From a phage: a DNA stretch of 64,000 nt. The DNA lies in NCBI GenBank assembly GCA_024686575.1, contig GCA_024686575.1_4863.1. One strand, 5' to 3'. Below the pieces are notes generated by a model. It made no database searches and was not told the DNA's origin. It saw only the letters and a list, made by a program, of their open reading frames with translations. Positions 15,221 through 64,000 of the stretch are shown piece by piece (within the stretch, counting starts at the first letter, position 1; every line of letters begins with the position of its first letter). The position numbers and the translations under genes were made by a program.

Positions 15221-15235
15221 AGATAATATCTATCT
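15221..15235 (-). promoter_or_regulatory. conserved motif 2 (plus AGATAATATCTATCT; inverted repeat AGATA-N5-TATCT)
   Basis: Exact 15-mer present four times in the window; here about 45 nt upstream of the ATG at 15181. Confidence 0.5.
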
Positions 15236-15286: not shown

Positions 15287-15985
15287 TTAGGGTATTAGGC
15301 GTTGGGCTATTTCGCGGAGTTGGTCGCGGGTTAAATCAGCCAACTTCTGGTCGCCGAAGCCCAACTTCAGACCCAGCTCGTACCCAGCTTGCGGATACGT
15401 GTTCGTGTTTGCTACTGAGAGGAGTGCATCGGCTATCTTTACCATCGTTAACTCGAGAGACGCATACGGGGCGGGGATCGGCTGATTCACGATTTGGTAA
15501 TTATAACGCACTGCGGCGTTATCGTAGTCAAACTCCATCCTTCTGCCGAGAACGTTAAACGACTCCGCAGAATAACTACCAAGTGGGTGATTGGCTTTTT
15601 CCCACAAATCTTTCCGTTCAGTAAACCCAGTCGCGAAGTTCTGACGTATGGTGTCGAATATTTGCGTTGCCTGGCTAGGGTGTATATTTTTCAGCTCATT
15701 GTAGTCGTAGTCGGCGATGGAATATAGAGTGAACACAACACCGTTTATATTTAACTGCGGATAATCCATCCGCAGACTGTCATCACCTTGTAAATGAAGT
15801 TCCCACATCCTTACCCACTGCAATATCGCGCTTACCGCATCGTGACTGAGATAAAAATTAGTAGGTTCTTCAGGATTTTCACGGAAGGGAACAGAGCATT
15901 CCGATACAAAAAAGCCGGCTGCCATAAATCCTCTGCCGTCGAACATAGGCGCAACTAATCTTGATTTTTCTAAATTGATTACCAT
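15287..15985 (-). CDS. hypothetical protein
   Basis: 232 aa; AAGGAG Shine-Dalgarno 8 nt upstream of ATG; preceded by the AGATAGATATTATCT motif and the terminator of the upstream gene. Confidence 0.7.
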   Translation of the reverse strand: MVINLEKSRLVAPMFDGRGFMAAGFFVSECSVPFRENPEEPTNFYLSHDAVSAILQWVRMWELHLQGDDSLRMDYPQLNINGVVFTLYSIADYDYNELKNIHPSQATQIFDTIRQNFATGFTERKDLWEKANHPLGSYSAESFNVLGRRMEFDYDNAAVRYNYQIVNQPIPAPYASLELTMVKIADALLSVANTNTYPQAGYELGLKLGFGDQKLADLTRDQLREIAQRLIP

Positions 15986-16025: not shown

Positions 16026-16040
16026 AGATAATATCTATCT
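16026..16040 (-). promoter_or_regulatory. conserved motif 2, copy downstream of the 766 aa gene terminator
   Basis: Exact 15-mer 41 nt upstream of the ATG at 15985, immediately after the terminator U-run. Confidence 0.5.
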
Positions 16041-22791: not shown

Positions 22792-22842
22792 GGCAATACT
22801 CCTTTAGATTAATAGTCGATTGAGTTGATAGATTGTCTTCTA

Positions 22843-22868
22843 TCACCTAGGTAATATATATCTGAAAT
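22843..22868 (-). promoter_or_regulatory. conserved promoter-like motif 1 (minus-strand reading contains TATATATTACCTAGGTGA)
   Basis: 26-nt exact repeat TCACCTAGGTAATATATATCTGAAAT shared with 31344-31369; lies between a terminator and the first gene of a small-gene operon. Confidence 0.55.
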
Positions 22869-22984
22869 TATTTTTATTCAGAGTACACCCTCTATAACGC
22901 TCTCAAACGCGTTTTGAGAGCTTTTATCACTATAGAGGGCGTTCTACCGTTAGAGTGGCTTTAGAAGGTTGTGAGTGCGTTTAG
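22869..22984 (-). other. structured non-coding region with nested palindromes (regulatory element or small RNA candidate)
   Basis: CCCTCTATA...TATAGAGGG encloses the palindrome GCTCTCAAACGCGTTTTGAGAGC; followed by three TTAGAG-type repeats; sits between a terminator and promoter motif 1. Confidence 0.4.
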
Positions 22985-28969: not shown

Positions 28970-29521
28970 TTAAACTCCAGCGATACGATTTAAAATTTGA
29001 TACGTCCAACGGTGCGTGTGTTTCTGGCCGTCGGGTAAATGAGTCATGGTGTAGTCGACTTGAAAAACATCTCTGTCGATTTCTGGGAAGAATGCATCTG
29101 CACCTTCAACAGCAATGTCAATACGCGATAGATAAATACGATCCGCACGAGCGAGGGTTTGTTGATAAACTGATGCGCCGCCAATAATCATCACCTCTTG
29201 CTCTTTTCCGGTATCTTTCTCGATACGTTCCAGAGCCTTGATGGCTAAATCAATACTCGTGTGAAACGTCACCAAACGCATGTCGGTGTGTTCTTCCCGG
29301 CCATTGATGTACCCTTCTGGGTTACGAGTAACAATTAAGTTACCGCGGTTAGGCAAAGGACGACAACCTAACGATTCCCAGGTCTTACTACCCATGATAA
29401 CGTTCTTCCCTGTGGTAATTGCCTTAAAGTTAGCCAGGTCGGCAGGCAGACGCCACGGCAGTTCATTGTTTTTACCGATGGCGTTGTTGCGGTCCATCGC
29501 GACGATAATAGAGAGTTTCAC
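28970..29521 (-). CDS. folA: dihydrofolate reductase
   Basis: 183 aa; aligns along full length with bacterial and T4 DHFR (IIVAMDRNNAIG, LPWRLPADLANFK, VIMGSKTWESLG, RPLPNRGN, MIIGGASVYQ, YLSRIDIAVEGADAFFP); GTG start. Confidence 0.85.
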   Translation of the reverse strand: MKLSIIVAMDRNNAIGKNNELPWRLPADLANFKAITTGKNVIMGSKTWESLGCRPLPNRGNLIVTRNPEGYINGREEHTDMRLVTFHTSIDLAIKALERIEKDTGKEQEVMIIGGASVYQQTLARADRIYLSRIDIAVEGADAFFPEIDRDVFQVDYTMTHLPDGQKHTHRWTYQILNRIAGV

Positions 29522-29892
29522 GGTTTGCTCCTACGGGCTTTAGATAATTCTTTCATTGCGTGGCGTAAATGGCGACTAAATTCAAGACGGCTATACGAGA
29601 ATGTCACCGGATAGTCCAGAATCACCGACAGTGATACCGTTCTGGCATCCACTTCGACCAACAGACTGTTCGTACAGCAACCTGCAAACATCCCACTACC
29701 AACCAACGGCCTCTTAAGCCTAATAGTTAGCGTACCAAGCCATTCCCTGTCGCCGAGCAGCAACAAGGCCTCTGCCAGGTCTTCTTCAACTACCGCTAGA
29801 CAGTATTCGTCATCTCGTACACGGAGGCGAATCTGCGGTTCTACGTTTGCGATTTCTGGCGTCATCTCAAATTTAAATTTATCGGTCATCAA
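29518..29892 (-). CDS. hypothetical protein
   Basis: 124 aa ORF; stop overlaps DHFR start; gene begins directly after a terminator hairpin. Confidence 0.6.
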   Translation of the reverse strand: MMTDKFKFEMTPEIANVEPQIRLRVRDDEYCLAVVEEDLAEALLLLGDREWLGTLTIRLKRPLVGSGMFAGCCTNSLLVEVDARTVSLSVILDYPVTFSYSRLEFSRHLRHAMKELSKARRSKP

Positions 29893-29928
29893 ACAATCCC
29901 AAAAAAGAAGGTGGCATGTTAGGCCACC
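29893..29928 (-). terminator. rho-independent terminator or attenuator
   Basis: Stem GGTGGC/GCCACC followed on minus strand by TTCTTTTTTGGG; next gene starts immediately after, so readthrough is likely needed. Confidence 0.6.
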
Positions 29929-29936
29929 TTATTAAA

Positions 29937-30482
29937 TCATTGAACCATACGCTGCGCGTCGTAAGACGGTGCGAGGTTCACAACACGACCATGTAGAGTT
30001 TGCTCTGCTTCGTCTAACAGGTCATCGCGTACGAGCGTCTGGCGAATGTAAAGCGTTGCACGTATCCCCTCAGCGCTGTAAGGCGCGGTGACCATTTTGG
30101 TCTGGTAACCATCAATCGTCACCGGAACACGCTCACCGTTACGACGAACAAAATGCTCCAACTTACCGTAATCGTGACTACAGACTTTAGACATGTCGGA
30201 CAATCCCGCATCGATTAAGTATTTCCAAAGACCGATGATGCTCTCCGAGCAATGTTTGTTAAGTTCACCTTCGACGACAAACTCGTACCCACCGTACGTT
30301 AGAATGTGCGTGCCTGCTGCACGACGATCACATTCTAAAATGAATACGCCCAGACCAATCATAACTGGACGCGGGATTGTCATGACACTGGTACTAAATT
30401 GCAGCGTAGTAACCTCATCCCAAAGGGGCGATGATTTATCGTTACTTACGCTAATAATATCTTTAAGATTGACACGTTTCAT
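29937..30482 (-). CDS. hypothetical protein
   Basis: 181 aa ORF; AAGGAG Shine-Dalgarno 9 nt upstream; terminator downstream. Confidence 0.65.
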   Translation of the reverse strand: MKRVNLKDIISVSNDKSSPLWDEVTTLQFSTSVMTIPRPVMIGLGVFILECDRRAAGTHILTYGGYEFVVEGELNKHCSESIIGLWKYLIDAGLSDMSKVCSHDYGKLEHFVRRNGERVPVTIDGYQTKMVTAPYSAEGIRATLYIRQTLVRDDLLDEAEQTLHGRVVNLAPSYDAQRMVQ

Positions 30483-30540
30483 TATAAATACTCCTTAAGA
30501 TTAATGGTCGATTACATACGGTTTCAGGCTAACGTAATAT

Positions 30541-31302
30541 TTACGCTGCTGGTTCTTCAGCGGTTTTCACTTCAACTGGTTTCATCAGCGAGTTCGCACA
30601 GTCGAAGATAGCATCCAGGAAACCACGGAACGGCTTCATGGCTTCACGCTGGGCGTTCTGACGTTCTTCTTCAATTGCTTCTTCTTGCGCCTGAATTTCT
30701 TCAGCAGTCAGCTCCGGGTGTTCCGTCATGCTTTCTGCCAGGGTCATCACTTTCGGCTGCGCATTCCGAATCGGAATACGGCGGATGACCTTGGTGATAT
30801 TCCCGAGCTTCATGCCACCCAGCGCGGTTTCGAACAGCGTACCGAAATCTTGCAGTGGGTCTTCGCTGATTTCCAGTACCGCCGGAGTCGCAACCAGACC
30901 AAAGGCAATGACCAATTCAACAGCAGTGTCGGTGACGTGCACAGCGAACGGGGTGTCTTCCATCTGCAGGTAATTGTTACCATTATAGGTCACCGGAATG
31001 AATTTGATTTCTTCCCCTTTCTTCAGGCGCAGTGTGTCGACTGCGGCTTTGTACTGAACTTCGTACAGTTCCGGTTTAACACCGTCAACGTTATCCAGTG
31101 TAAAGAGCAGGTCGCCAACCGCCATACGGCGCGGCAGTTTGCGTTTGTTGATTTCGCGCAGCCAGACTTGTAAGCCGGTGAATTGAATTGGGGACAGTAT
31201 AATTTTAAAGCCGTTGGTTGCTTGCAGGATAGCACCGTCGTCTTCGCTACGTTCGATAGAGCCATTAGCCAGAGTAAGCAGATTGATAGTTTTCATTTTC
31301 AT
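30541..31302 (-). CDS. hypothetical protein
   Basis: 253 aa ORF; AAGGAA Shine-Dalgarno; conserved promoter-like motif about 50 nt upstream of ATG. Confidence 0.7.
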   Translation of the reverse strand: MKMKTINLLTLANGSIERSEDDGAILQATNGFKIILSPIQFTGLQVWLREINKRKLPRRMAVGDLLFTLDNVDGVKPELYEVQYKAAVDTLRLKKGEEIKFIPVTYNGNNYLQMEDTPFAVHVTDTAVELVIAFGLVATPAVLEISEDPLQDFGTLFETALGGMKLGNITKVIRRIPIRNAQPKVMTLAESMTEHPELTAEEIQAQEEAIEEERQNAQREAMKPFRGFLDAIFDCANSLMKPVEVKTAEEPAA

Positions 31303-31343
31303 ATTCCTTAAGTGATAGTCGGTTAAAAGATTACCAATGCAAT

Positions 31344-31369
31344 CTCACCTAGGTAATATATATCTGAAA
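31344..31369 (-). promoter_or_regulatory. conserved promoter-like motif 1, second copy
   Basis: Identical 26-mer, with partial conservation of the next 15 nt; located after the paralog-1 terminator and about 50 nt upstream of the ATG at 31302. Confidence 0.55.
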
Positions 31370-31385
31370 TCTTTTCTAATCTGAG

Positions 31386-31426
31386 ACAAAAAAAGAAAGG
31401 GTAAATCCCCCACCGAAGTGGGGGAT
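31386..31426 (-). terminator. rho-independent terminator after paralog 1
   Basis: Stem ATCCCCCAC/GTGGGGGAT, UUCG loop in RNA, followed on minus strand by CTTTCTTTTTTT. Confidence 0.8.
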
Positions 31427-31438
31427 TCGCCAGTCTAA

Positions 31439-32698
31439 TTACTTAGACTTTTCGTACGCACCGATACCGGCGCTGATGTAGCCGTTAACGCCGGCGATCA
31501 GGTTTTTCTGGCCAGTTGCAACGCAACGTTCGGTCCAGGAGATGTACTGGTTCGCAACGGTGATTGCACGACGTGCAACACGGACGTTGGAAGTCAGTTC
31601 AGCGTTGTCGTCGATCTTCACGCCGTCGATACGTTTCAGCAGCGCCTCAATAGCCCGCTCGTACGATTCTTGAGCCTGGTTATTTTTGTGGTACGCTTTC
31701 ACGTTCTCTTCGACTGCTTTACCCAGCTGGTTGAAGAACGCAACCAGAGAAGACAGCGTCTGAGCAGACGGAGTAGAAACAGATTTTTCTACGCTGCCTT
31801 CAGCATCGATAACGGTGAAGGAAGCTTCCAGGTCATCCCCGTTCACTTTCACGTCAGCTTTACCGATCTGGTTACCCAGCAGTTGAACTTCGCCCGCTTT
31901 GCCTGCAGTGGCTTTGTTAACCGCTGCTGCGAAGCCGCTGTTCAGTTTCCCGCCTTCAACTGCGCTGACCATGCTGGTTGCAGCTTTGACCACTGCATCC
32001 TGCTCGCCGTAGATGCTGCCGATAGTAGACAGAACACCTTTCAGGACGTTGATGTCGTTACCGACGAACTTACCACCGGTGGTCAGGTTCTTAATGAACC
32101 CACCGCTAACGGTGTCTTTCTTCTGCTTGCCCAGACCACGCAGAGCCGCGTCATATTTCTTAGCGCGCGCCTGAATGGATTTACCCTGGTTGCTGAACTT
32201 GAGCCAGCGATCTTTGATTTTACGGCCTTGTTCTTTCAGCCAGTCGAAGATACGCTGCAGGAACGCTTTGATGTCGTCCCACAGTGATTCACGAGCAACC
32301 TGACGGCGTTTACGTGCGCCGTAAGATTCCTGCGCAACGCTTACGCGGTGATCGAATGCCCAACGTTTACGGATAGATTCCTGCGCAACGTCCAGCTGCT
32401 CAGCAGCTTCGTCAGGCATATCTTCTTCCACTTCCATTGGCTCTTCGCCATCTTCGCCTTCGCCGTCAGCAGCGGCTTCAGCAGCATCAACTGCATCCAG
32501 CTGTGCATCAGTTTCGTCACCGTCTTCTGCCAGCACGTCTGCTTCTGCGTCCAGCTGGTCGATCGGTTTGGTGTCGTGCTCGATGTCAGCCAGAGTACCT
32601 TCCACGGACTCAGCCGGCAGCTCGATGCCATCTGGAACGACAGTGCCTGCGCCTTCGACAGATTCACGAGCGAGTTTACTTTTTACAAAGTTAGCCAT
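31439..32698 (-). CDS. abundant protein, paralog 1 of tandem pair (candidate head or scaffold-like structural protein)
   Basis: 419 aa; strongly biased codon usage; N-terminus MANFVKSKLARESVE and C-terminus GAGIGAYEKSK shared with the adjacent gene; acidic N-terminal region; terminator downstream. Confidence 0.8.
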   Translation of the reverse strand: MANFVKSKLARESVEGAGTVVPDGIELPAESVEGTLADIEHDTKPIDQLDAEADVLAEDGDETDAQLDAVDAAEAAADGEGEDGEEPMEVEEDMPDEAAEQLDVAQESIRKRWAFDHRVSVAQESYGARKRRQVARESLWDDIKAFLQRIFDWLKEQGRKIKDRWLKFSNQGKSIQARAKKYDAALRGLGKQKKDTVSGGFIKNLTTGGKFVGNDINVLKGVLSTIGSIYGEQDAVVKAATSMVSAVEGGKLNSGFAAAVNKATAGKAGEVQLLGNQIGKADVKVNGDDLEASFTVIDAEGSVEKSVSTPSAQTLSSLVAFFNQLGKAVEENVKAYHKNNQAQESYERAIEALLKRIDGVKIDDNAELTSNVRVARRAITVANQYISWTERCVATGQKNLIAGVNGYISAGIGAYEKSK

Positions 32699-32714
32699 CT
32701 TTTTCTATCCTCTA

Positions 32715-32735
32715 GGCGGTACGCCGTGTACCGCC
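32715..32735 (-). other. intergenic hairpin between the tandem paralogs
   Basis: 8-bp stem GGCGGTAC/GTACCGCC with 5-nt loop and no U-run, between the stop of paralog 2 and the Shine-Dalgarno of paralog 1. Confidence 0.45.
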
Positions 32736-32775
32736 ATTAATGATTTGTCAACTGACGTTCAGTACGTAAAGCGGA

Positions 32776-34053
32776 TTATGCTTTAGACTTTTCGTACGCG
32801 CCAATACCAGCGCCGATGTAGCCGTTCAGGCCGCTGATAACAGTGTTACCAACGTGAGCCACAGCACGGTTCAGAGTCTGGTAGTTACGCACAGCCTGGT
32901 CAGCTGCAGTGCGTGCATTACGCAGCGCTTCCCACTCGCCTTCGTCGTTGGATTTTTTCAGAGCGGCAGCAGCTTTGGCAGCAGCCTCTTCCAGTTTCTC
33001 AACGTCAGCGTCGTAGCTGCGGAAGTCTTGCAGGACTTTCTCGAAGCCTTTACCGATAACGTCCAGGGCAGACGCAGCAGATGCCAGTGCAGAAATAGCC
33101 GGAGTAGCGATTTCTTTCGTTTCAGAAACGTCACCCGTCGACAGGAAGGCCACTGCGGTGAATTCCTGACCGCCTGCCAGAGTTTTGGTGCCGGTCTGTA
33201 CATAGGCGTTGCCTGGCAGTGCCAGAACTTTCTGACCGCCTTCGCCGTCTTCGAATTGCGGCAGTGCGCGCAGTTTCTTCGCAGCGGTACCAAACAGGGC
33301 AACGTCAACAGCGCCTTTAGCAGCGGTTGCGGTACCGTCTGAAGTTTTGGTGATCGCTACAGCAGAGTCAGCCGCCTGAGAGGACAGCTTGTTGATAGCA
33401 TCTTTCGCTTTACCGCCGGTCAGCTCTTTCGCGATAGCGATAGAGTTGGCCACATCGAATTCACCTTCGATAGACAGTTTGCTAATAAAGCCACCAGAAA
33501 TGTTTTCTTTCTTCTGTTTGCCGAGCTTACGCAGCATCTCCTGGTAAGCTTTCGCACGTTTCTGCGCGGACTTACCAACGTTGATGTACTTCAGTTTCAG
33601 CTCTTTCGCTTTCGCGATAACTGCTTTACACAGTTCAACGAAGCGTTCGAACAGATCTTTCAGGGTTTCTTTCCAGCCTTCCTGAGCTGCTTTGGTCATG
33701 CCACGGCCACGGCGATAAGATTCGCGTGCCAGTTTGGTACGATCGATAGCCCAACGCTTACGGATAGATTCCTGCGCCACCTCGGTGTGAGCGATGGCTT
33801 CTTCAGGCATCTCTTCACCGTTTTCGATTTTTTCGTCAGCAGCGTCGATAGCAGCTTCGGTACGCTCGGTATCAGCAGCCAGAGTTTCCTGGTCACCATC
33901 GAGCTGTTCCAGCTGACCGTCGATAGACGCAACTTCTGCCAGCTGAACGTCGATGTTCTCTTCTGCCGGTTCAACGTTGCTCAGACCGTCGATTACGTCG
34001 CCGGTAGCTTCAACGGACTCGCGGGCGAGTTTACTTTTTACAAAGTTTGCCAT
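32776..34053 (-). CDS. abundant protein, paralog 2 of tandem pair (candidate head or scaffold-like structural protein)
   Basis: 425 aa; same N-terminal 15 residues and C-terminal motif as paralog 1; biased codon usage; AAAGGAA Shine-Dalgarno. Confidence 0.8.
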   Translation of the reverse strand: MANFVKSKLARESVEATGDVIDGLSNVEPAEENIDVQLAEVASIDGQLEQLDGDQETLAADTERTEAAIDAADEKIENGEEMPEEAIAHTEVAQESIRKRWAIDRTKLARESYRRGRGMTKAAQEGWKETLKDLFERFVELCKAVIAKAKELKLKYINVGKSAQKRAKAYQEMLRKLGKQKKENISGGFISKLSIEGEFDVANSIAIAKELTGGKAKDAINKLSSQAADSAVAITKTSDGTATAAKGAVDVALFGTAAKKLRALPQFEDGEGGQKVLALPGNAYVQTGTKTLAGGQEFTAVAFLSTGDVSETKEIATPAISALASAASALDVIGKGFEKVLQDFRSYDADVEKLEEAAAKAAAALKKSNDEGEWEALRNARTAADQAVRNYQTLNRAVAHVGNTVISGLNGYIGAGIGAYEKSKA

Positions 34054-34109
34054 TTGTTTCGGTTCCTTTGGTTATAACCCAATTACACGCCCCTAGATAA
34101 GGGGCCCCC

Positions 34110-44650: not shown

Positions 44651-46435
44651 ATGGAAATCAATACCTATTACGCACCCGAGGATGTCATCGCTAAAGAGTG
44701 CAAGCACGTCGCTTATGCGACGGACGAAGAAAAAGAAAATGACTTTGTCCTCATCAAAGAGGTCATCCATACTAAGGATGGCAGGCTTATCCCGCGCTTG
44801 GTAATGCGTGAGAATTTAAAGCGTCCGGTGTACGTTACCCGTGAAGAATATCGTAACCACCAGGAGAAAAAGGAGTTCGAAGAAAAAGGAAAATGTCAAG
44901 AACTCTGGACTACTGATGCGCAGATGGCGAAGACGTTGCAGATGGGTTTAGGTGCACGTTTCCCTGACCCGAAAAAGAACCTGAGGCGTGTTTGTACTAG
45001 CCCGTACGTTTATTGGGCCGACTTACCGATTACCAGCTGGATTAAACAGAAATACTTAAAGCGTTGGCCAAACAACATCAGTCCTAACCGTCTTTGTGTA
45101 TACGACGTAGAGACCAACGAAATGGACGGCACGAAGGAACCGTGGATCGTGTCATTTATCTTAGACGACGAAATCCATTTCTTTGGTGCTAAGAACTACA
45201 TGGACCGCATCGGTAAAAACGCGGAAGAAGTCATTCTCAAAAAAGCGCAGGAACTCTTAAGCAAAATCGAATTCGATGAGAAAGACAAAAAGACTGGCGA
45301 AAAGGTGACAAAGACCAAAGACATTATCAGTGGTTATAAAATCTTCACCTATACCTGCGCTACAGCAGGGCAGTGCATCGTCAGGATGTTCGAAGAAATT
45401 CATCCGCGTCTTCCTGATTTGCTGGTCGCATGGAACCACCAGTTCGATATTTCACGCATGTTAGAAACCTTGCAGAAAGAAGGCATCGATCCACTGGGCG
45501 TCTTTAACCATCCGGATGTGCCGGAGAAATACCGTCGTCTGTGGTTTAAAGAAGACCAGGCGAACAAAAAGACAGAATCCAAGTCACTCACCAAAGCACC
45601 GTCACAACAGTGGCACGTACTCTACTGTACTGCGTCTTTCTACTGTGTGGATGCCATGGTGTTATTCCGTTCGTTGCGTGTCCACGAAGGCCAACGTCCT
45701 TCGTACAAGTTATCTGCCATACTGTACACCGAACTCGGTTTACACAAACTCGACATTCCTGGCCTGCCGTATGAAGATAACCTGCAATGGCACATAAAAG
45801 CACAACGGGACTACCCTGCCGAATACGCCGTATACAACATGATGGATAACTTGTTAATTGTGTTGTTGGATAAGAAGACGAACGACTTGTCTTCAGCAAT
45901 ATCCATTCTGGCAGGTTTCTCGATGTACGATATCTTCCCGTCGCTACCAAAACGTATCTGTGTGGCCTTTACCTATTATCTGTATGACAAAGGATACGTC
46001 ATCGGCTCCGTAGGATCTGCAATGCGTAACGATTACGATGAAGAGGTTATCGGTACAGACGGTTGGATTGTTACCCTGACAGCATGTATGAATGCTGAGA
46101 ACGGTCTGAATAACATTCTGGAGGAGATTGACGAATATTACTCTGCGTTCCGTGGTCAAACTGCGGATGCGGACTTAACCCAGGCCTACCCTTCGGCCAC
46201 AAACATGATGAACCAGTCTCGTGAGACCACACTCATTGAACTGCTGTCCATCAATGGGGTTAGTGAAGAGATTCGACGTCGCACGGGCGTCAACTTAACT
46301 GCTGGGCGAGTTAATGCCATGGAAATAGCGACAGACTTCTTCTGCTTACCGGACAAAGACACTGTCCTGTCTACGTTCTTACGTAAGCAAGGGGAAGTAG
46401 TGACAGAGCCTATGGAGTACATCTGCGGGTTCTAA
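44651..46435 (+). CDS. family-B DNA polymerase N-terminal fragment (3-5 exonuclease domain plus motif A)
   Basis: 594 aa; Exo I-like VYDVETNE, Exo II-like VAWNHQFD, Exo III-like YCVDAM, and polymerase motif A-like DLTQAYPS; motifs B and C (KxxxNSxYG, YGDTDS) not found, so the rest of the polymerase is encoded elsewhere. Confidence 0.65.
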   Translation: MEINTYYAPEDVIAKECKHVAYATDEEKENDFVLIKEVIHTKDGRLIPRLVMRENLKRPVYVTREEYRNHQEKKEFEEKGKCQELWTTDAQMAKTLQMGLGARFPDPKKNLRRVCTSPYVYWADLPITSWIKQKYLKRWPNNISPNRLCVYDVETNEMDGTKEPWIVSFILDDEIHFFGAKNYMDRIGKNAEEVILKKAQELLSKIEFDEKDKKTGEKVTKTKDIISGYKIFTYTCATAGQCIVRMFEEIHPRLPDLLVAWNHQFDISRMLETLQKEGIDPLGVFNHPDVPEKYRRLWFKEDQANKKTESKSLTKAPSQQWHVLYCTASFYCVDAMVLFRSLRVHEGQRPSYKLSAILYTELGLHKLDIPGLPYEDNLQWHIKAQRDYPAEYAVYNMMDNLLIVLLDKKTNDLSSAISILAGFSMYDIFPSLPKRICVAFTYYLYDKGYVIGSVGSAMRNDYDEEVIGTDGWIVTLTACMNAENGLNNILEEIDEYYSAFRGQTADADLTQAYPSATNMMNQSRETTLIELLSINGVSEEIRRRTGVNLTAGRVNAMEIATDFFCLPDKDTVLSTFLRKQGEVVTEPMEYICGF

Positions 46436-46490
46436 AACAAAAAAAGAAAGGCCTCTCTACCCTAGGGTAGAGAGGTACTTTTATTTAGCC
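46436..46490. terminator. bidirectional rho-independent terminator
   Basis: Palindromic stem CCTCTCTACCC/GGGTAGAGAGG flanked by A-run and T-run, between convergent genes. Confidence 0.8.
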
Positions 46491-59713: not shown

Positions 59714-59728
59714 AGATAATATCTATCT
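59714..59728. promoter_or_regulatory. conserved motif 2 in divergent intergenic region
   Basis: Exact 15-mer between the RNAP beta-like gene start (59683) and the plus gene start (59750); could serve either or both. Confidence 0.5.
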
Positions 59729-61490: not shown

Positions 61491-63191
61491 TTAATCAATG
61501 AGACCGTTGCCGAGTCCGTTTCCGCCTATACCGCCTAAGCCACCACCCAGGTCAAGACCTCCAAGAGGATCTAAGCCACCTGTGTTAGTTGGAATGTTAG
61601 ATAGCATTCGACCCCGGCCTTGGCCTTTCTCGAATTCTGTATAACCTTCTTCCACGGCTTTCAGCAGCGTTGCAGTGTTCTGTGCCAGCTCACCAACGTA
61701 TTTGAGATCGGTGGTGTTGCCGGTATGGAGACGGAATTGCATAAACGACGCGTAGGTGTAATATTCCAGCGGTTCGTCGTCGACACGGATTTCAATACGA
61801 GTAACGGTCCCCAACAATGCGGTGACCAGCATGTGACAGCGAATATGGTTATGTTTAGTAACCTGAACCATCGCTTCTTTCATGTTCTGCAAGAAACGAC
61901 GACCTAATGCAGCAGGTAACTGATGATGTGTGATGCTGCTGACTGAGTTAGGAATAACTTCCAACGTAGGCTCTATCATGATATCCGTGTTACGGTTATC
62001 AAAGACAAAGCTCACTTCGCCAATCAGGTTACGTGACATAATCGGCCCGATAGACATAGCCAGATCATACGCAACTAGACTACCCTGAGTAGAAAAGCCG
62101 TTACGTCCAATCCAGTGGTCGGTTTGGTTAACCAGCCCTGCACCCAACCCACGGCGACTTGCCAGCGCCAGCGATTCACGGATACATTCATCCAACCGCA
62201 TTGGGTTGACAATCGCATTACGCAAATCAGCCAAACGGAACGTCGCCTTACTGGTTGCTTTCCAACCGCCAGATACATCAGACATCCCGTTCTGGAGTGC
62301 TTGACGCATCGCAGCAATCAGTTCGTGGTTGCTGTAGTTACGGATAACACCACGCTGCTTCAATTCAGATTCAACGCCGATGGAGTTATTACCTGCAAAG
62401 AAGCTTTCCACGCTACCGAGTTCGGTATCTACCCCAGAGCTTGCCAGATACGCATTACTGATTGCAGATACGTAGTTTTCCGGACGCTGGAGTTGGGATA
62501 CCATCAACTGTGGTGCAGAGCTACTGGTTGCGGATAGCACAGAGTCGCTCGTTGGAACGAACTTCTCACCGCTATTCATTTCAATACGTTTTACCATATC
62601 CGCTGCTTTCGCGATCGAAATGATATCTACCGTACTTTCTGTTTGACCTTCAACAGACAGCGCTTTCGATAAAACGTAGTTATCCAGTAGACGGAATGAG
62701 TCTGGGTTCAATGTTTTGCCGCCCAGGGCATCGTGTGTATACGTTGCCTGTAAGCCGTAGATGTCGTTAATGTACAACACCATATCGTCCGGCAGCAGGC
62801 TACCCAGGCTGGTTTCTGCCTGACTGGTATAACCGGAGACGATGTATTGCGTTTCCTGAGTGCGTGTTGCATTCAGAGGTTTAGCAATAAACACCGCCAC
62901 GAAGTTAAAGATACCGGTATCACGTGATTCCCATTGGAACTGTACAGGACGATTGTCATCATCGGACACGTTGATGAATGGACGCTCAAAACCGTTCTGG
63001 GTGCCATCGAAGCCCACGATGGCAGATAATGCTTCTTGATACTGCTGTGTTCCCACAGCTTTTTCCCCGCCCAGTTCAACCGCTGCTGCTAAGTCATCCA
63101 GTGCACCCGTCGATGCGTTAAAGCCGATGCGGCGACGAACTTGCTCTGGAACATCGTAGACCGGATACATCAGTAGATTTACAAGCTGCAT
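61491..63191 (-). CDS. hypothetical protein with Gly/Leu-rich C-terminal tail
   Basis: 566 aa; AAGGAG Shine-Dalgarno 9 nt upstream; C-terminus GGLDPLGGLDLGGGLGGIGGNGLGNGLID. Confidence 0.7.
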   Translation of the reverse strand: MQLVNLLMYPVYDVPEQVRRRIGFNASTGALDDLAAAVELGGEKAVGTQQYQEALSAIVGFDGTQNGFERPFINVSDDDNRPVQFQWESRDTGIFNFVAVFIAKPLNATRTQETQYIVSGYTSQAETSLGSLLPDDMVLYINDIYGLQATYTHDALGGKTLNPDSFRLLDNYVLSKALSVEGQTESTVDIISIAKAADMVKRIEMNSGEKFVPTSDSVLSATSSSAPQLMVSQLQRPENYVSAISNAYLASSGVDTELGSVESFFAGNNSIGVESELKQRGVIRNYSNHELIAAMRQALQNGMSDVSGGWKATSKATFRLADLRNAIVNPMRLDECIRESLALASRRGLGAGLVNQTDHWIGRNGFSTQGSLVAYDLAMSIGPIMSRNLIGEVSFVFDNRNTDIMIEPTLEVIPNSVSSITHHQLPAALGRRFLQNMKEAMVQVTKHNHIRCHMLVTALLGTVTRIEIRVDDEPLEYYTYASFMQFRLHTGNTTDLKYVGELAQNTATLLKAVEEGYTEFEKGQGRGRMLSNIPTNTGGLDPLGGLDLGGGLGGIGGNGLGNGLID

Positions 63192-63203: not shown

Positions 63204-64000
63204 TTAAGAATTAAACCATTCAACTTCTTCTAACTTGCGACGTGCATTCAACACCATAAACTCCGCCAGGCTATTGTGCAGTGACAAGTGAGGTATATAG
63301 TTTGGCTGATCCGTCTCACACTTCAGCAGCGCAGCTGCTTCTGGTGTAGCCCTGAGATGGAACAGATACGGGTTGATGTGATCCTTGTGTAACAAGGTCA
63401 GTGATTCCCGTGGTGTAGATTGCGGTTCGAGATTACGCGGGTTGCGATACTCCTGAAGATAATATCTATCTAAATCTGCTTTGAGTTCAGATCGAATTGG
63501 GTCGGCTGCATAACCGGCAGACATCTCAGAACGCACCATATTGCAACTTAACAGTTGCGCAACGTCATACATTCCATAATTGAGATAAGTTGCCTGTGCT
63601 AACGCCATGCCGTAGCGAAACGCTTCTGGTCCACATTCGGTATACGTCTTATAATGCGCGCTACGATGGAGTGCTAATGCGACTAACCATTCGTGGAGCG
63701 TATAGACAGGACCGTCGTGTGTTGCCAGTTGCGAATCAATCAATAACTTAACATCTGCTGGAGCGGCATTATCCAGGCGCATTGTTTTCAAGAAAGAGCG
63801 GTATTCTTTAAATACGTACTCGGTACGGACGTATTCTTTCATCTGGGCAGGAGAACGTGCCTGCACCAAATCCATGGCGTTTATCTTACCCTTTTCGCCA
63901 TTGAATATCACACTTTCTGGATGCGCTTTTAACAGCACCGGCTGGTTAGAGATTTTGTTTGCAAAACCTGTTTCAATCTCTTGTTTAACCAGAAAATACA
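63204..64000 (-). CDS. hypothetical protein, 5-prime partial (continues beyond window end)
   Basis: Track ORF starts at a GTG at 63938, but the frame stays open to the window end; contains an internal copy of the AGATAGATATTATCT motif. Confidence 0.55.
   Translation of the reverse strand, partial: YFLVKQEIETGFANKISNQPVLLKAHPESVIFNGEKGKINAMDLVQARSPAQMKEYVRTEYVFKEYRSFLKTMRLDNAAPADVKLLIDSQLATHDGPVYTLHEWLVALALHRSAHYKTYTECGPEAFRYGMALAQATYLNYGMYDVAQLLSCNMVRSEMSAGYAADPIRSELKADLDRYYLQEYRNPRNLEPQSTPRESLTLLHKDHINPYLFHLRATPEAAALLKCETDQPNYIPHLSLHNSLAEFMVLNARRKLEEVEWFNS
63457..63471 (-). promoter_or_regulatory. conserved motif 2, intragenic copy
   Basis: Exact 15-mer inside the coding sequence of 63204-64000 (encodes DRYYL), about 270 nt upstream of the next gene start at 63191. 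Confidence 0.35.

Follow-up and report, generated by a model that had tools for sequence, protein, structure and literature searches.

A repeated, conserved 26-mer as a probable early promoter of the gp55-gp56 unit in an SPN3US-like jumbo phage

The 64,000-nucleotide stretch of phage DNA considered here (hereafter, the window) carries on its minus strand a 26-mer, ATTTCAGATATATATTACCTAGGTGA, in exactly two copies (31345-31370 and 22843-22868), and the question raised by the first of these is whether it is a promoter and, if so, which RNA polymerase reads it. The original prediction pointed to a second exact copy of the 26-mer at this site and took the repeat to denote a functional promoter class, as opposed to a chance recurrence. 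The copy is indeed there: the sequence at 31345-31370 is the same as that at 22843-22868, and additional matches with up to three mismatches are absent from the window, occur in 0 of 100 shuffles and are not expected by chance. As set out below, the element at 31345-31370 is very likely an early promoter of a phiKZ-related jumbo phage, and its reader is probably the injected, multisubunit virion RNA polymerase. A literature search returned no published mapping of transcripts, start sites or timing for SPN3US-type phages, and the polymerase, the start site and the early timing are accordingly given here as predictions.

Judged by its sequence, the phage of the window is an SPN3US-like Seoulvirus, that is, a nucleus-forming jumbo phage of ~240 kb related to phiKZ; over the region 29500-32800, identity is 99.4% with Proteus phage 7 and Enterobacteria phage SEGD1 and 98.6% with Salmonella phage SPN3US. 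Gene names follow the original SPN3US numbering, obtained as 266 minus the RefSeq tag number, a conversion that recovers gp42 as a polymerase subunit and gp53 and gp54 as internal head protein paralogs. All genes around the 26-mer at 31345-31370 lie on the minus strand. The orthologues of gp53 (32776-34053, minus strand) and gp54 (31439-32698, minus strand), both internal head protein paralogs with a match to the Pfam family phiKZ_IP, come first, and downstream of gp54 the order is gp55, gp56, gp57 and then DHFR (gp58). The gp53 and gp54 proteins are very abundant in the virion (PMC5694885), and several RNA polymerase beta-type subunit genes are annotated in SPN3US. The gp55-gp56 unit is placed among late structural genes, and the GC content around it shows no clear anomaly.

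Within this arrangement, the 26-mer at 31345-31370 sits between the strong terminator of gp54 and the gp55-gp56 unit, which ends in a second terminator. Its predicted position directly after the terminator of the first paralog agrees with the fold: the intrinsic terminator hairpin of gp54 (31403-31428, minus strand) has 11 pairs, 6 of them G-C, and a folding energy of -22.4 kcal/mol (z = -4.85), is followed by a T-rich tail (31387-31402, minus strand) and is invariant across the spacer alignment of seven relatives described below. Downstream of the 26-mer, a gene is present as anticipated, listed as an open reading frame of 253 aa (30541-31302); its length requires correction, however, as the second ATG, at 31296, is probably the true start of the gp55 orthologue, which would then comprise 251 aa (30541-31296, minus strand). 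This start is favoured because its spacing to the ribosome-binding site AAGGA is normal, because it is the sole ATG there in Erwinia phage pEa_SNUABM_29 and because it is the annotated start in SPN3US. Next in the unit is the expected gene of 181 aa, the gp56 orthologue (29937-30482, minus strand), and the hairpin reported after it is likewise real: the intrinsic terminator at 29898-29930 (minus strand) consists of a hairpin at 29908-29930 with 8 pairs (-12.1 kcal/mol, z = -2.1) and the tail CTTTTTTGGG at 29898-29907 (minus strand). In relatives, its stem has undergone a compensatory change from GGTGGC/GCCACC to GGTAGCC/GGCTACC, with pairing kept. Both sites have, on the sense strand and after a stop codon, the G+C-rich hairpin and T run that define an intrinsic terminator. 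The proposal of a two-gene unit is accordingly plausible in outline, but the terminator that closes it is weaker than that of gp54 and the next gene begins 9 nt beyond its tail, so that read-through into the DHFR genes is possible.

The two exact copies turn out to belong to a larger set. Identity between them ends at exactly 26 nt; over the 15 positions further upstream (31371-31385 and 22869-22883), 10 of 15 match, just as had been estimated, for 36 of 41 positions overall. The copy at 22843-22868 (minus strand) heads a run of small genes, the gp66-gp70 orthologues. Both copies are members of a sharper family, AGATAKATATTAYCT-N4-GA, with six exact AGATAKATATTAYCT matches in the window, all on the minus strand (15221, 16026, 22849, 31351, 59714 and 63457), and no intermediate matches at one or two mismatches; arithmetic from the pattern gives ~0.0005 exact matches expected by chance in 64 kb, both strands counted. 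With a position weight matrix built from SPN3US sites, the six window sites score 35-45 bits, the rest of the window at most 13 bits and shuffled windows at most 9 bits. At 31345-31370, the family defines a promoter core of 15 nt, AGATATATATTACCT (31351-31365, minus strand), within which lies the octamer TATATTAC (31353-31360, minus strand).

The same family pervades the genome of SPN3US, where 10 exact matches, 16 matches at up to one mismatch and 23 at up to two mismatches are found, 22 of the 23 on the coding strand. Of these 22, 21 were kept as sites, the one dropped being a weak two-mismatch match inside a gene. The sites lie ~30-100 nt upstream of start codons, save one inside a gene, and among the family copies in the window the one exception to an intergenic location is that at 63457, inside the end of a gene. 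Alignment of the 21 SPN3US sites yields the consensus ..AA..aaaTtTc AGATAgATATTAtCT a.GtGAga; over the AT-rich core, the information content is 1.0-1.7 bits per position. Two sub-variants can be distinguished, namely TATATTAC-CT/TT, which includes the 31345-31370 copy, and GATATTAT-CT; the latter form, AGATA-GATAT-TATCT, has partial dyad symmetry, whereas the TATATTAC sub-variant is not symmetric. Upstream of the core, TtTc and an AA tract are conserved in the 21 sites and gATTAaAAAaGATTTC recurs in related phages; the corresponding A/T-rich upstream part of the putative promoter is GATTAGAAAAGATTTC (31366-31386, minus strand), ~-36 to -20 from the predicted start. That start is placed at G31346 (minus strand), 7 nt after the octamer, on account of the conserved G and of the position at which the leader hairpin begins. 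The G carries 1.7 bits over the 21 SPN3US sites and is among their best conserved positions. If G31346 is the start, the octamer occupies -14 to -7 and the leader is ~50 nt long, similar to those that an equivalent start would give at phiKZ sites and to the 31-40 nt reported as typical of phiKZ (PMC8244752).

Comparison with relatives indicates that this block is held constant while its surroundings change. The gp54-gp55 spacer was aligned across seven genomes, namely the window, SPN3US, SPAsTU, pEa_SNUABM_29 and three assembly contigs; none of them departs from TTTCAGATATATATTACCT..GTGAG save at two variable spacer positions, where pEa_SNUABM_29 differs. Protein identity of gp55 is 44-78% in the more distant of the seven genomes, and the motif is unchanged even where the downstream gp55 is 44-60% identical. 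More broadly, the pattern AGATAKATATTAYCTNNGTGA occurs in 57 stretches of a viral contig collection, which with few exceptions come from contigs 220-248 kb long, and the layout of these stretches is nearly constant: a terminator tail, A/T-rich DNA, the core, GTGA and, 40-70 nt on, a ribosome-binding site and ATG. The flanks are conserved and asymmetric, with TTTC upstream and GTGA downstream.

The class of the putative promoter is suggested by phages in which transcripts have been mapped. According to reviews, sequence analysis detects a conserved AT-rich motif of ~10 nt in every jumbo phage with polymerases of its own, located at -10 before early operons, and where transcripts have been mapped this motif is the early promoter (PMC7598289); early promoters of the phiKZ type are conserved at -10, -20 and -30 (PMC11512511; PMC8244752). 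In the first 50 kb of phiKZ, TATATTAC occurs seven times on the coding strand and not once on the other, and all seven copies fall in intergenic DNA, 34-72 nt ahead of a start codon, with the surrounding pattern tttaaacagTATATTAC-N6-G, the G 7 nt past the octamer being present in 7/7. One of them lies upstream of PHIKZ054, the shell-protein gene, for which a primary start site with the early motif has been reported (PMC8244752). A variant, TATATCAT, is found upstream of PHIKZ070.1-071, and a degenerate copy of the motif stands at the equivalent position before a polymerase gene of Erwinia phage Phobos. To call the phiKZ octamer "early" is to draw on descriptions of the published logo, on one mapped gene and on the logo itself, which we take to agree with TATATTAC. 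The family is too frequent to be due to chance, strictly co-oriented with the genes downstream, invariant amid diverged genes and recurrent in its layout, and it shares its octamer with phiKZ; a promoter class is accordingly supported, as originally proposed, with the amendment that the "two independent copies" on which the proposal was founded are really six, in two sub-variants.

The genes that follow the motif copies bear on when they would be transcribed. The copy at 59714 heads two genes of 745 aa and 701 aa, the orthologues of phiKZ gp71-73 and gp74, with a best phiKZ match to PHIKZ073, annotated in KTN4 as a non-virion polymerase subunit. In SPN3US, two copies lie upstream of gp22-gp23, and SPN3US gp23 is orthologous to phiKZ gp55 (E = 8e-43). 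As for SPN3US gp22, considered as a shell protein, it is not so called here because BLASTP against the phiKZ shell protein gave no similarity and Pfam gave no match. In phiKZ, gp55, gp71-73 and gp74 are subunits of the non-virion polymerase, and the early genes encoding them are transcribed by the virion polymerase that is injected (PMC8287921; PMC13282480). The remaining sites precede small hypothetical genes and one gene for a helix-turn-helix protein, no virion-protein annotation is found among the ~20 SPN3US genes that follow a site, and the plus-strand genes of the window, including helicase and DNA polymerase, have no copy of the motif.

A promoter for the non-virion phage polymerase, either of a middle or late class or used throughout infection, would suit a site amid late head genes and would have precedents: in phage 201phi2-1, some non-virion polymerase genes are reported to be read from middle promoters (PMC11512511), so that a position upstream of such genes is insufficient to establish the early class, and in AR9 there are genes with both early and late promoters (PMC7598289). 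This reading is nonetheless unlikely, since the motif precedes the non-virion polymerase's own genes and that enzyme cannot be the first to transcribe them. In addition, phiKZ has weak middle and late motifs, namely an AT-rich patch at -24 and TATG at the start site, and sequence-based prediction is said to miss them (PMC7598289); the motif here is long and sharp and contains the phiKZ octamer.

It is more doubtful still that the motif serves as an operator, bound by a phage repressor or activator, and is not itself what the polymerase recognises. The partial dyad of the second sub-variant (AGATA-N5-TATCT) could suit a dimeric DNA-binding protein, and one SPN3US copy precedes the helix-turn-helix gene mentioned above; yet the sub-variant at 31345-31370 lacks this symmetry, orientation is strict and the conserved flanks asymmetric, with the reverse strand reaching at most 13 bits as against 35-45, and the distance to start codons is constrained. 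A host sigma-70 promoter is highly improbable: TATATT resembles a -10 hexamer, but a scan for -35 and -10 hexamers at 16-18 nt spacing finds no site at the motif, there is no -35 at workable spacing, conservation reaches well beyond the hexamer, and infection by phiKZ (a result for that phage, not SPN3US) is rifampicin-resistant and independent of the host polymerase (PMC7598289). Hardly to be credited, finally, is a dispersed repeat from recent duplication or recombination without a regulatory role, for, even if the two 26-mers do not differ and the genome contains repeated whole cassettes of promoter, hairpin and ribosome-binding region, the motif stays unchanged from genus to genus amid diverging flanking genes, its strand and position are fixed and a degenerate copy is kept at the equivalent place in distant relatives.

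If the element at 31345-31370 is an early promoter starting at G31346, the transcript would open directly with a hairpin, GAGAUUGC-AUUG-GUAAUCUU (31327-31346, minus strand), whose fold starts at nucleotide 1. In two relatives, L010 and L011, the stem reads GAGCAAA...UUUGCUU, with both partners replaced in three pairs and a single partner in a fourth; this covariation is to be counted as one event because it probably reflects one shared ancestral change. Across the alignment, 96% of cells in the leader stem are paired versus 37-55% in slid controls. The position of the helix was further evaluated over 55 non-identical cassettes of related phages, the stems of which vary widely in sequence: a helix of -3 kcal/mol or below begins within the first three nucleotides in 25 of the 33 cassettes of the TATATTAC sub-variant, in 2 of the 11 of the other sub-variant and in 11% of shuffles, with a nominal p-value that is too strong because the cassettes are related to each other. 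Folding energy, by comparison, says little: the 31327-31346 hairpin is not significantly stabler than shuffled sequence (z = -0.83), the mean folding energy of 21 SPN3US leaders does not differ from that of genomic controls (p = 0.46), and the informative features of the leader hairpin are confined to the placing of its helix at the 5' end and to the covariation. Protection of the mRNA at its 5' end or a protein-binding site are reasonable guesses as to its role.

Between this hairpin and the start codon of gp55 lies the element AACCGACTAT, followed by the ribosome-binding site TAAGGA (31305-31324, minus strand). The element, (A)ATCGACYAT...AAGGA, recurs before start codons in this phage group, and the gp55-gp56 spacer (30483-30540, minus strand) has it too, as GTAATCGACCATTAATCTTAAGGAG, beside a ribosome-binding site and without the promoter core. 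A search of the whole window against Rfam returned no family.

The products of the unit are themselves distinctive in their distribution. Homologs of gp55 and gp56 occur only in Seoulvirus-type phages; searches with gp55, gp56 and gp57 gave no Pfam match and, in PHROGs, only families of unknown function, and none of the three resembles PHIKZ001-003, which precede the DHFR gene of phiKZ. No relationship between gp55 and gp56 emerges from a profile comparison (3% probability), though their predicted secondary structures are similar. Neither is mentioned in the SPN3US virion proteome paper (PMC5694885) or carries a virion annotation.

The gp55 gene also appears, from comparison of closely related genomes, to be a sharply bounded variable cassette. 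In two assembly contigs, the neighbouring genes are 90-100% identical to the window, while from the leader to the gp55 stop identity is only ~0.5-0.7, returning to 0.93-0.97 from the gp55-gp56 spacer onward; on its left, the divergent block is bounded at the leader hairpin, immediately past the unchanged promoter. A third relative has its divergent blocks at gp56-gp57 and at gp59. Elsewhere in the window, a gene of 232 aa (15287-15985) lies between two promoter copies and has an internal deletion of ~607 nt in SPN3US; the deletion falls inside the gene and not at the promoter copies. Recombination at the terminator-promoter cassette, whose architecture is like that of the PeSL cassettes discussed below, is no more than suggested, by where the break points fall.

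The following sequence of events may thus be envisaged for the early promoter proposed here. The virion polymerase, brought in with the DNA from the capsid, would read AGATA-TATATTAC-CT at ~-19 to -5, along with the A/T-rich DNA before it, and would initiate on the minus strand at G31346 or close by. The resulting transcript would comprise a leader of ~50 nt that opens with a short hairpin, then gp55 and gp56, and would stop, at least partially, at the hairpin and T run 29930-29898; the strong upstream terminator would shield the unit from transcription of the abundant late head genes gp53 and gp54. A more speculative extension treats the TATATTAC-type cassette as a composite of terminator, invariant promoter, mRNA 5' hairpin and GACYAT element by the ribosome-binding site, in which the conserved DNA could be a crossover point for swapping fast-evolving early genes such as gp55 and the 5' hairpin could signal stability, export or translation of the first transcripts; we regard this extension as possible, though tentative.

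For a Salmonella jumbo phage used as a genetic model, the motif supplies a testable map of probable early promoters (6 sites in the window and ~21 in SPN3US, a start being predicted for each) and makes gp55 and gp56 candidate early, non-virion accessory genes. The variation of gp55 between near-identical phages is a pattern often seen in host-conflict genes. The motif is very probably an expected feature belonging to a known class of element, given that all phages of the group should have a conserved early-promoter motif, and it leaves the understanding of these phages unchanged.

Among known systems, the hairpin promoters of the N4 virion RNA polymerase resemble the present case in the injected polymerase, the small set of early promoters and the associated hairpin. 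In N4, however, the hairpin forms in DNA ahead of the start site and is what the polymerase, a single-subunit enzyme, recognises, whereas the hairpin here lies past the predicted start and shows covariation that would suit an RNA structure. The PeSL cassettes of T4-like phages are likewise small repeated units of a terminator stem-loop and an early promoter (PMC2839356; PMC4122927) that flank variable genes of unknown function, and they have been proposed to mediate modular gene shuffling in T4-like phages (PMC4122927). They differ in phage family and in polymerase, as T4 early promoters use the host sigma-70 enzyme, a requirement that does not hold here. Closest are the early promoters of phiKZ, with which the motif shares the octamer TATATTAC, the G 7 nt on and A/T-rich DNA upstream, as well as tens of co-oriented copies per genome, mostly intergenic and ~30-70 nt ahead of start codons; each phage also has a copy before two genes of which the second encodes the phiKZ gp55-type polymerase subunit. 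Hallmarks of the phiKZ type that are found here are a highly conserved AT-rich element of ~10 nt, conserved A/T-rich regions near -20 and -30 and many co-oriented and mostly intergenic copies. Copies also stand before non-virion polymerase genes, and gp55 and gp56 would be early genes. The motif departs from its phiKZ counterpart in its longer conserved block, with AGATA before the octamer and CT-N4-GA after it, and in its two sub-variants (TATATTAC and GATATTAT), one of which is usually accompanied by a hairpin at the predicted 5' end.

Most of the promoter cassettes (terminator tail, promoter core, leader and ribosome-binding site) built on the TATATTAC core sub-variant carry a recurrent minus-strand element, (A)ATCGACYAT(TA), which lies a few nucleotides upstream of an AAGGAG ribosome-binding site and occurs in the window at 30495-30520, 31305-31324 and 22800-22821. 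gp56, the second gene of the two-gene unit, is likewise preceded by this element, as are two or three SPN3US genes lacking a promoter core. The element could act in translation or represent a second type of promoter. In gp55, the first gene of that unit, listed as an ORF of 253 aa, the first ATG is situated just 2 nt past the ribosome-binding site (31296-31302), and translation likely begins at the second ATG, at 31296, to give a protein of 251 aa.

Comparison with relatives delimits a sharply bordered divergent block at gp55 (30541-31340, minus strand), wherein identity to two relatives that are elsewhere 90-100% identical drops to approximately 0.5-0.7 over the stretch between the leader hairpin and the stop codon; high identity to the same two relatives resumes abruptly at the spacer separating gp55 from gp56. 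A third relative has its divergent blocks at gp56-gp57 and gp59. Downstream of the unit, just 9 nt separate the terminator tail from the gp57 start codon (29889-29907, minus strand), a region in which neither a clear ribosome-binding site nor a recognisable promoter was detected; expression of the DHFR cluster must depend either on read-through of the terminator or on a promoter type invisible to sequence analysis.

The 21-nt repeat of family D20, which reads on the plus strand TCTGAGACAAAAAAAGAAAGG at 31380-31400 versus TCTAAAACAAAAAAAGAAAGG at 46431-46451, appears to correspond to the tails of two terminators that resemble each other. Two direct repeat pairs, each with 85-88% identity, correspond to conserved ends of the internal head protein paralogs gp53 and gp54, namely the C-terminal ends (31443-31498 and 32783-32838) and the N-terminal ends (32653-32705 and 34008-34060); the identical N-termini of these two proteins were already known (PMC5694885).

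Not every promoter copy is intergenic: the minus-strand copy at 63457-63471 is an internal promoter, located inside the gp30 orthologue, at its 3' end, with the next start codon 266 nt downstream, at 63191. Two further copies (16026-16040 and 15221-15235) flank a minus-strand gene of 232 aa (15287-15985; phrog_15414), which is intact in the window, whereas the SPN3US version has an internal deletion of approximately 607 nt and is thus dispensable in that phage.
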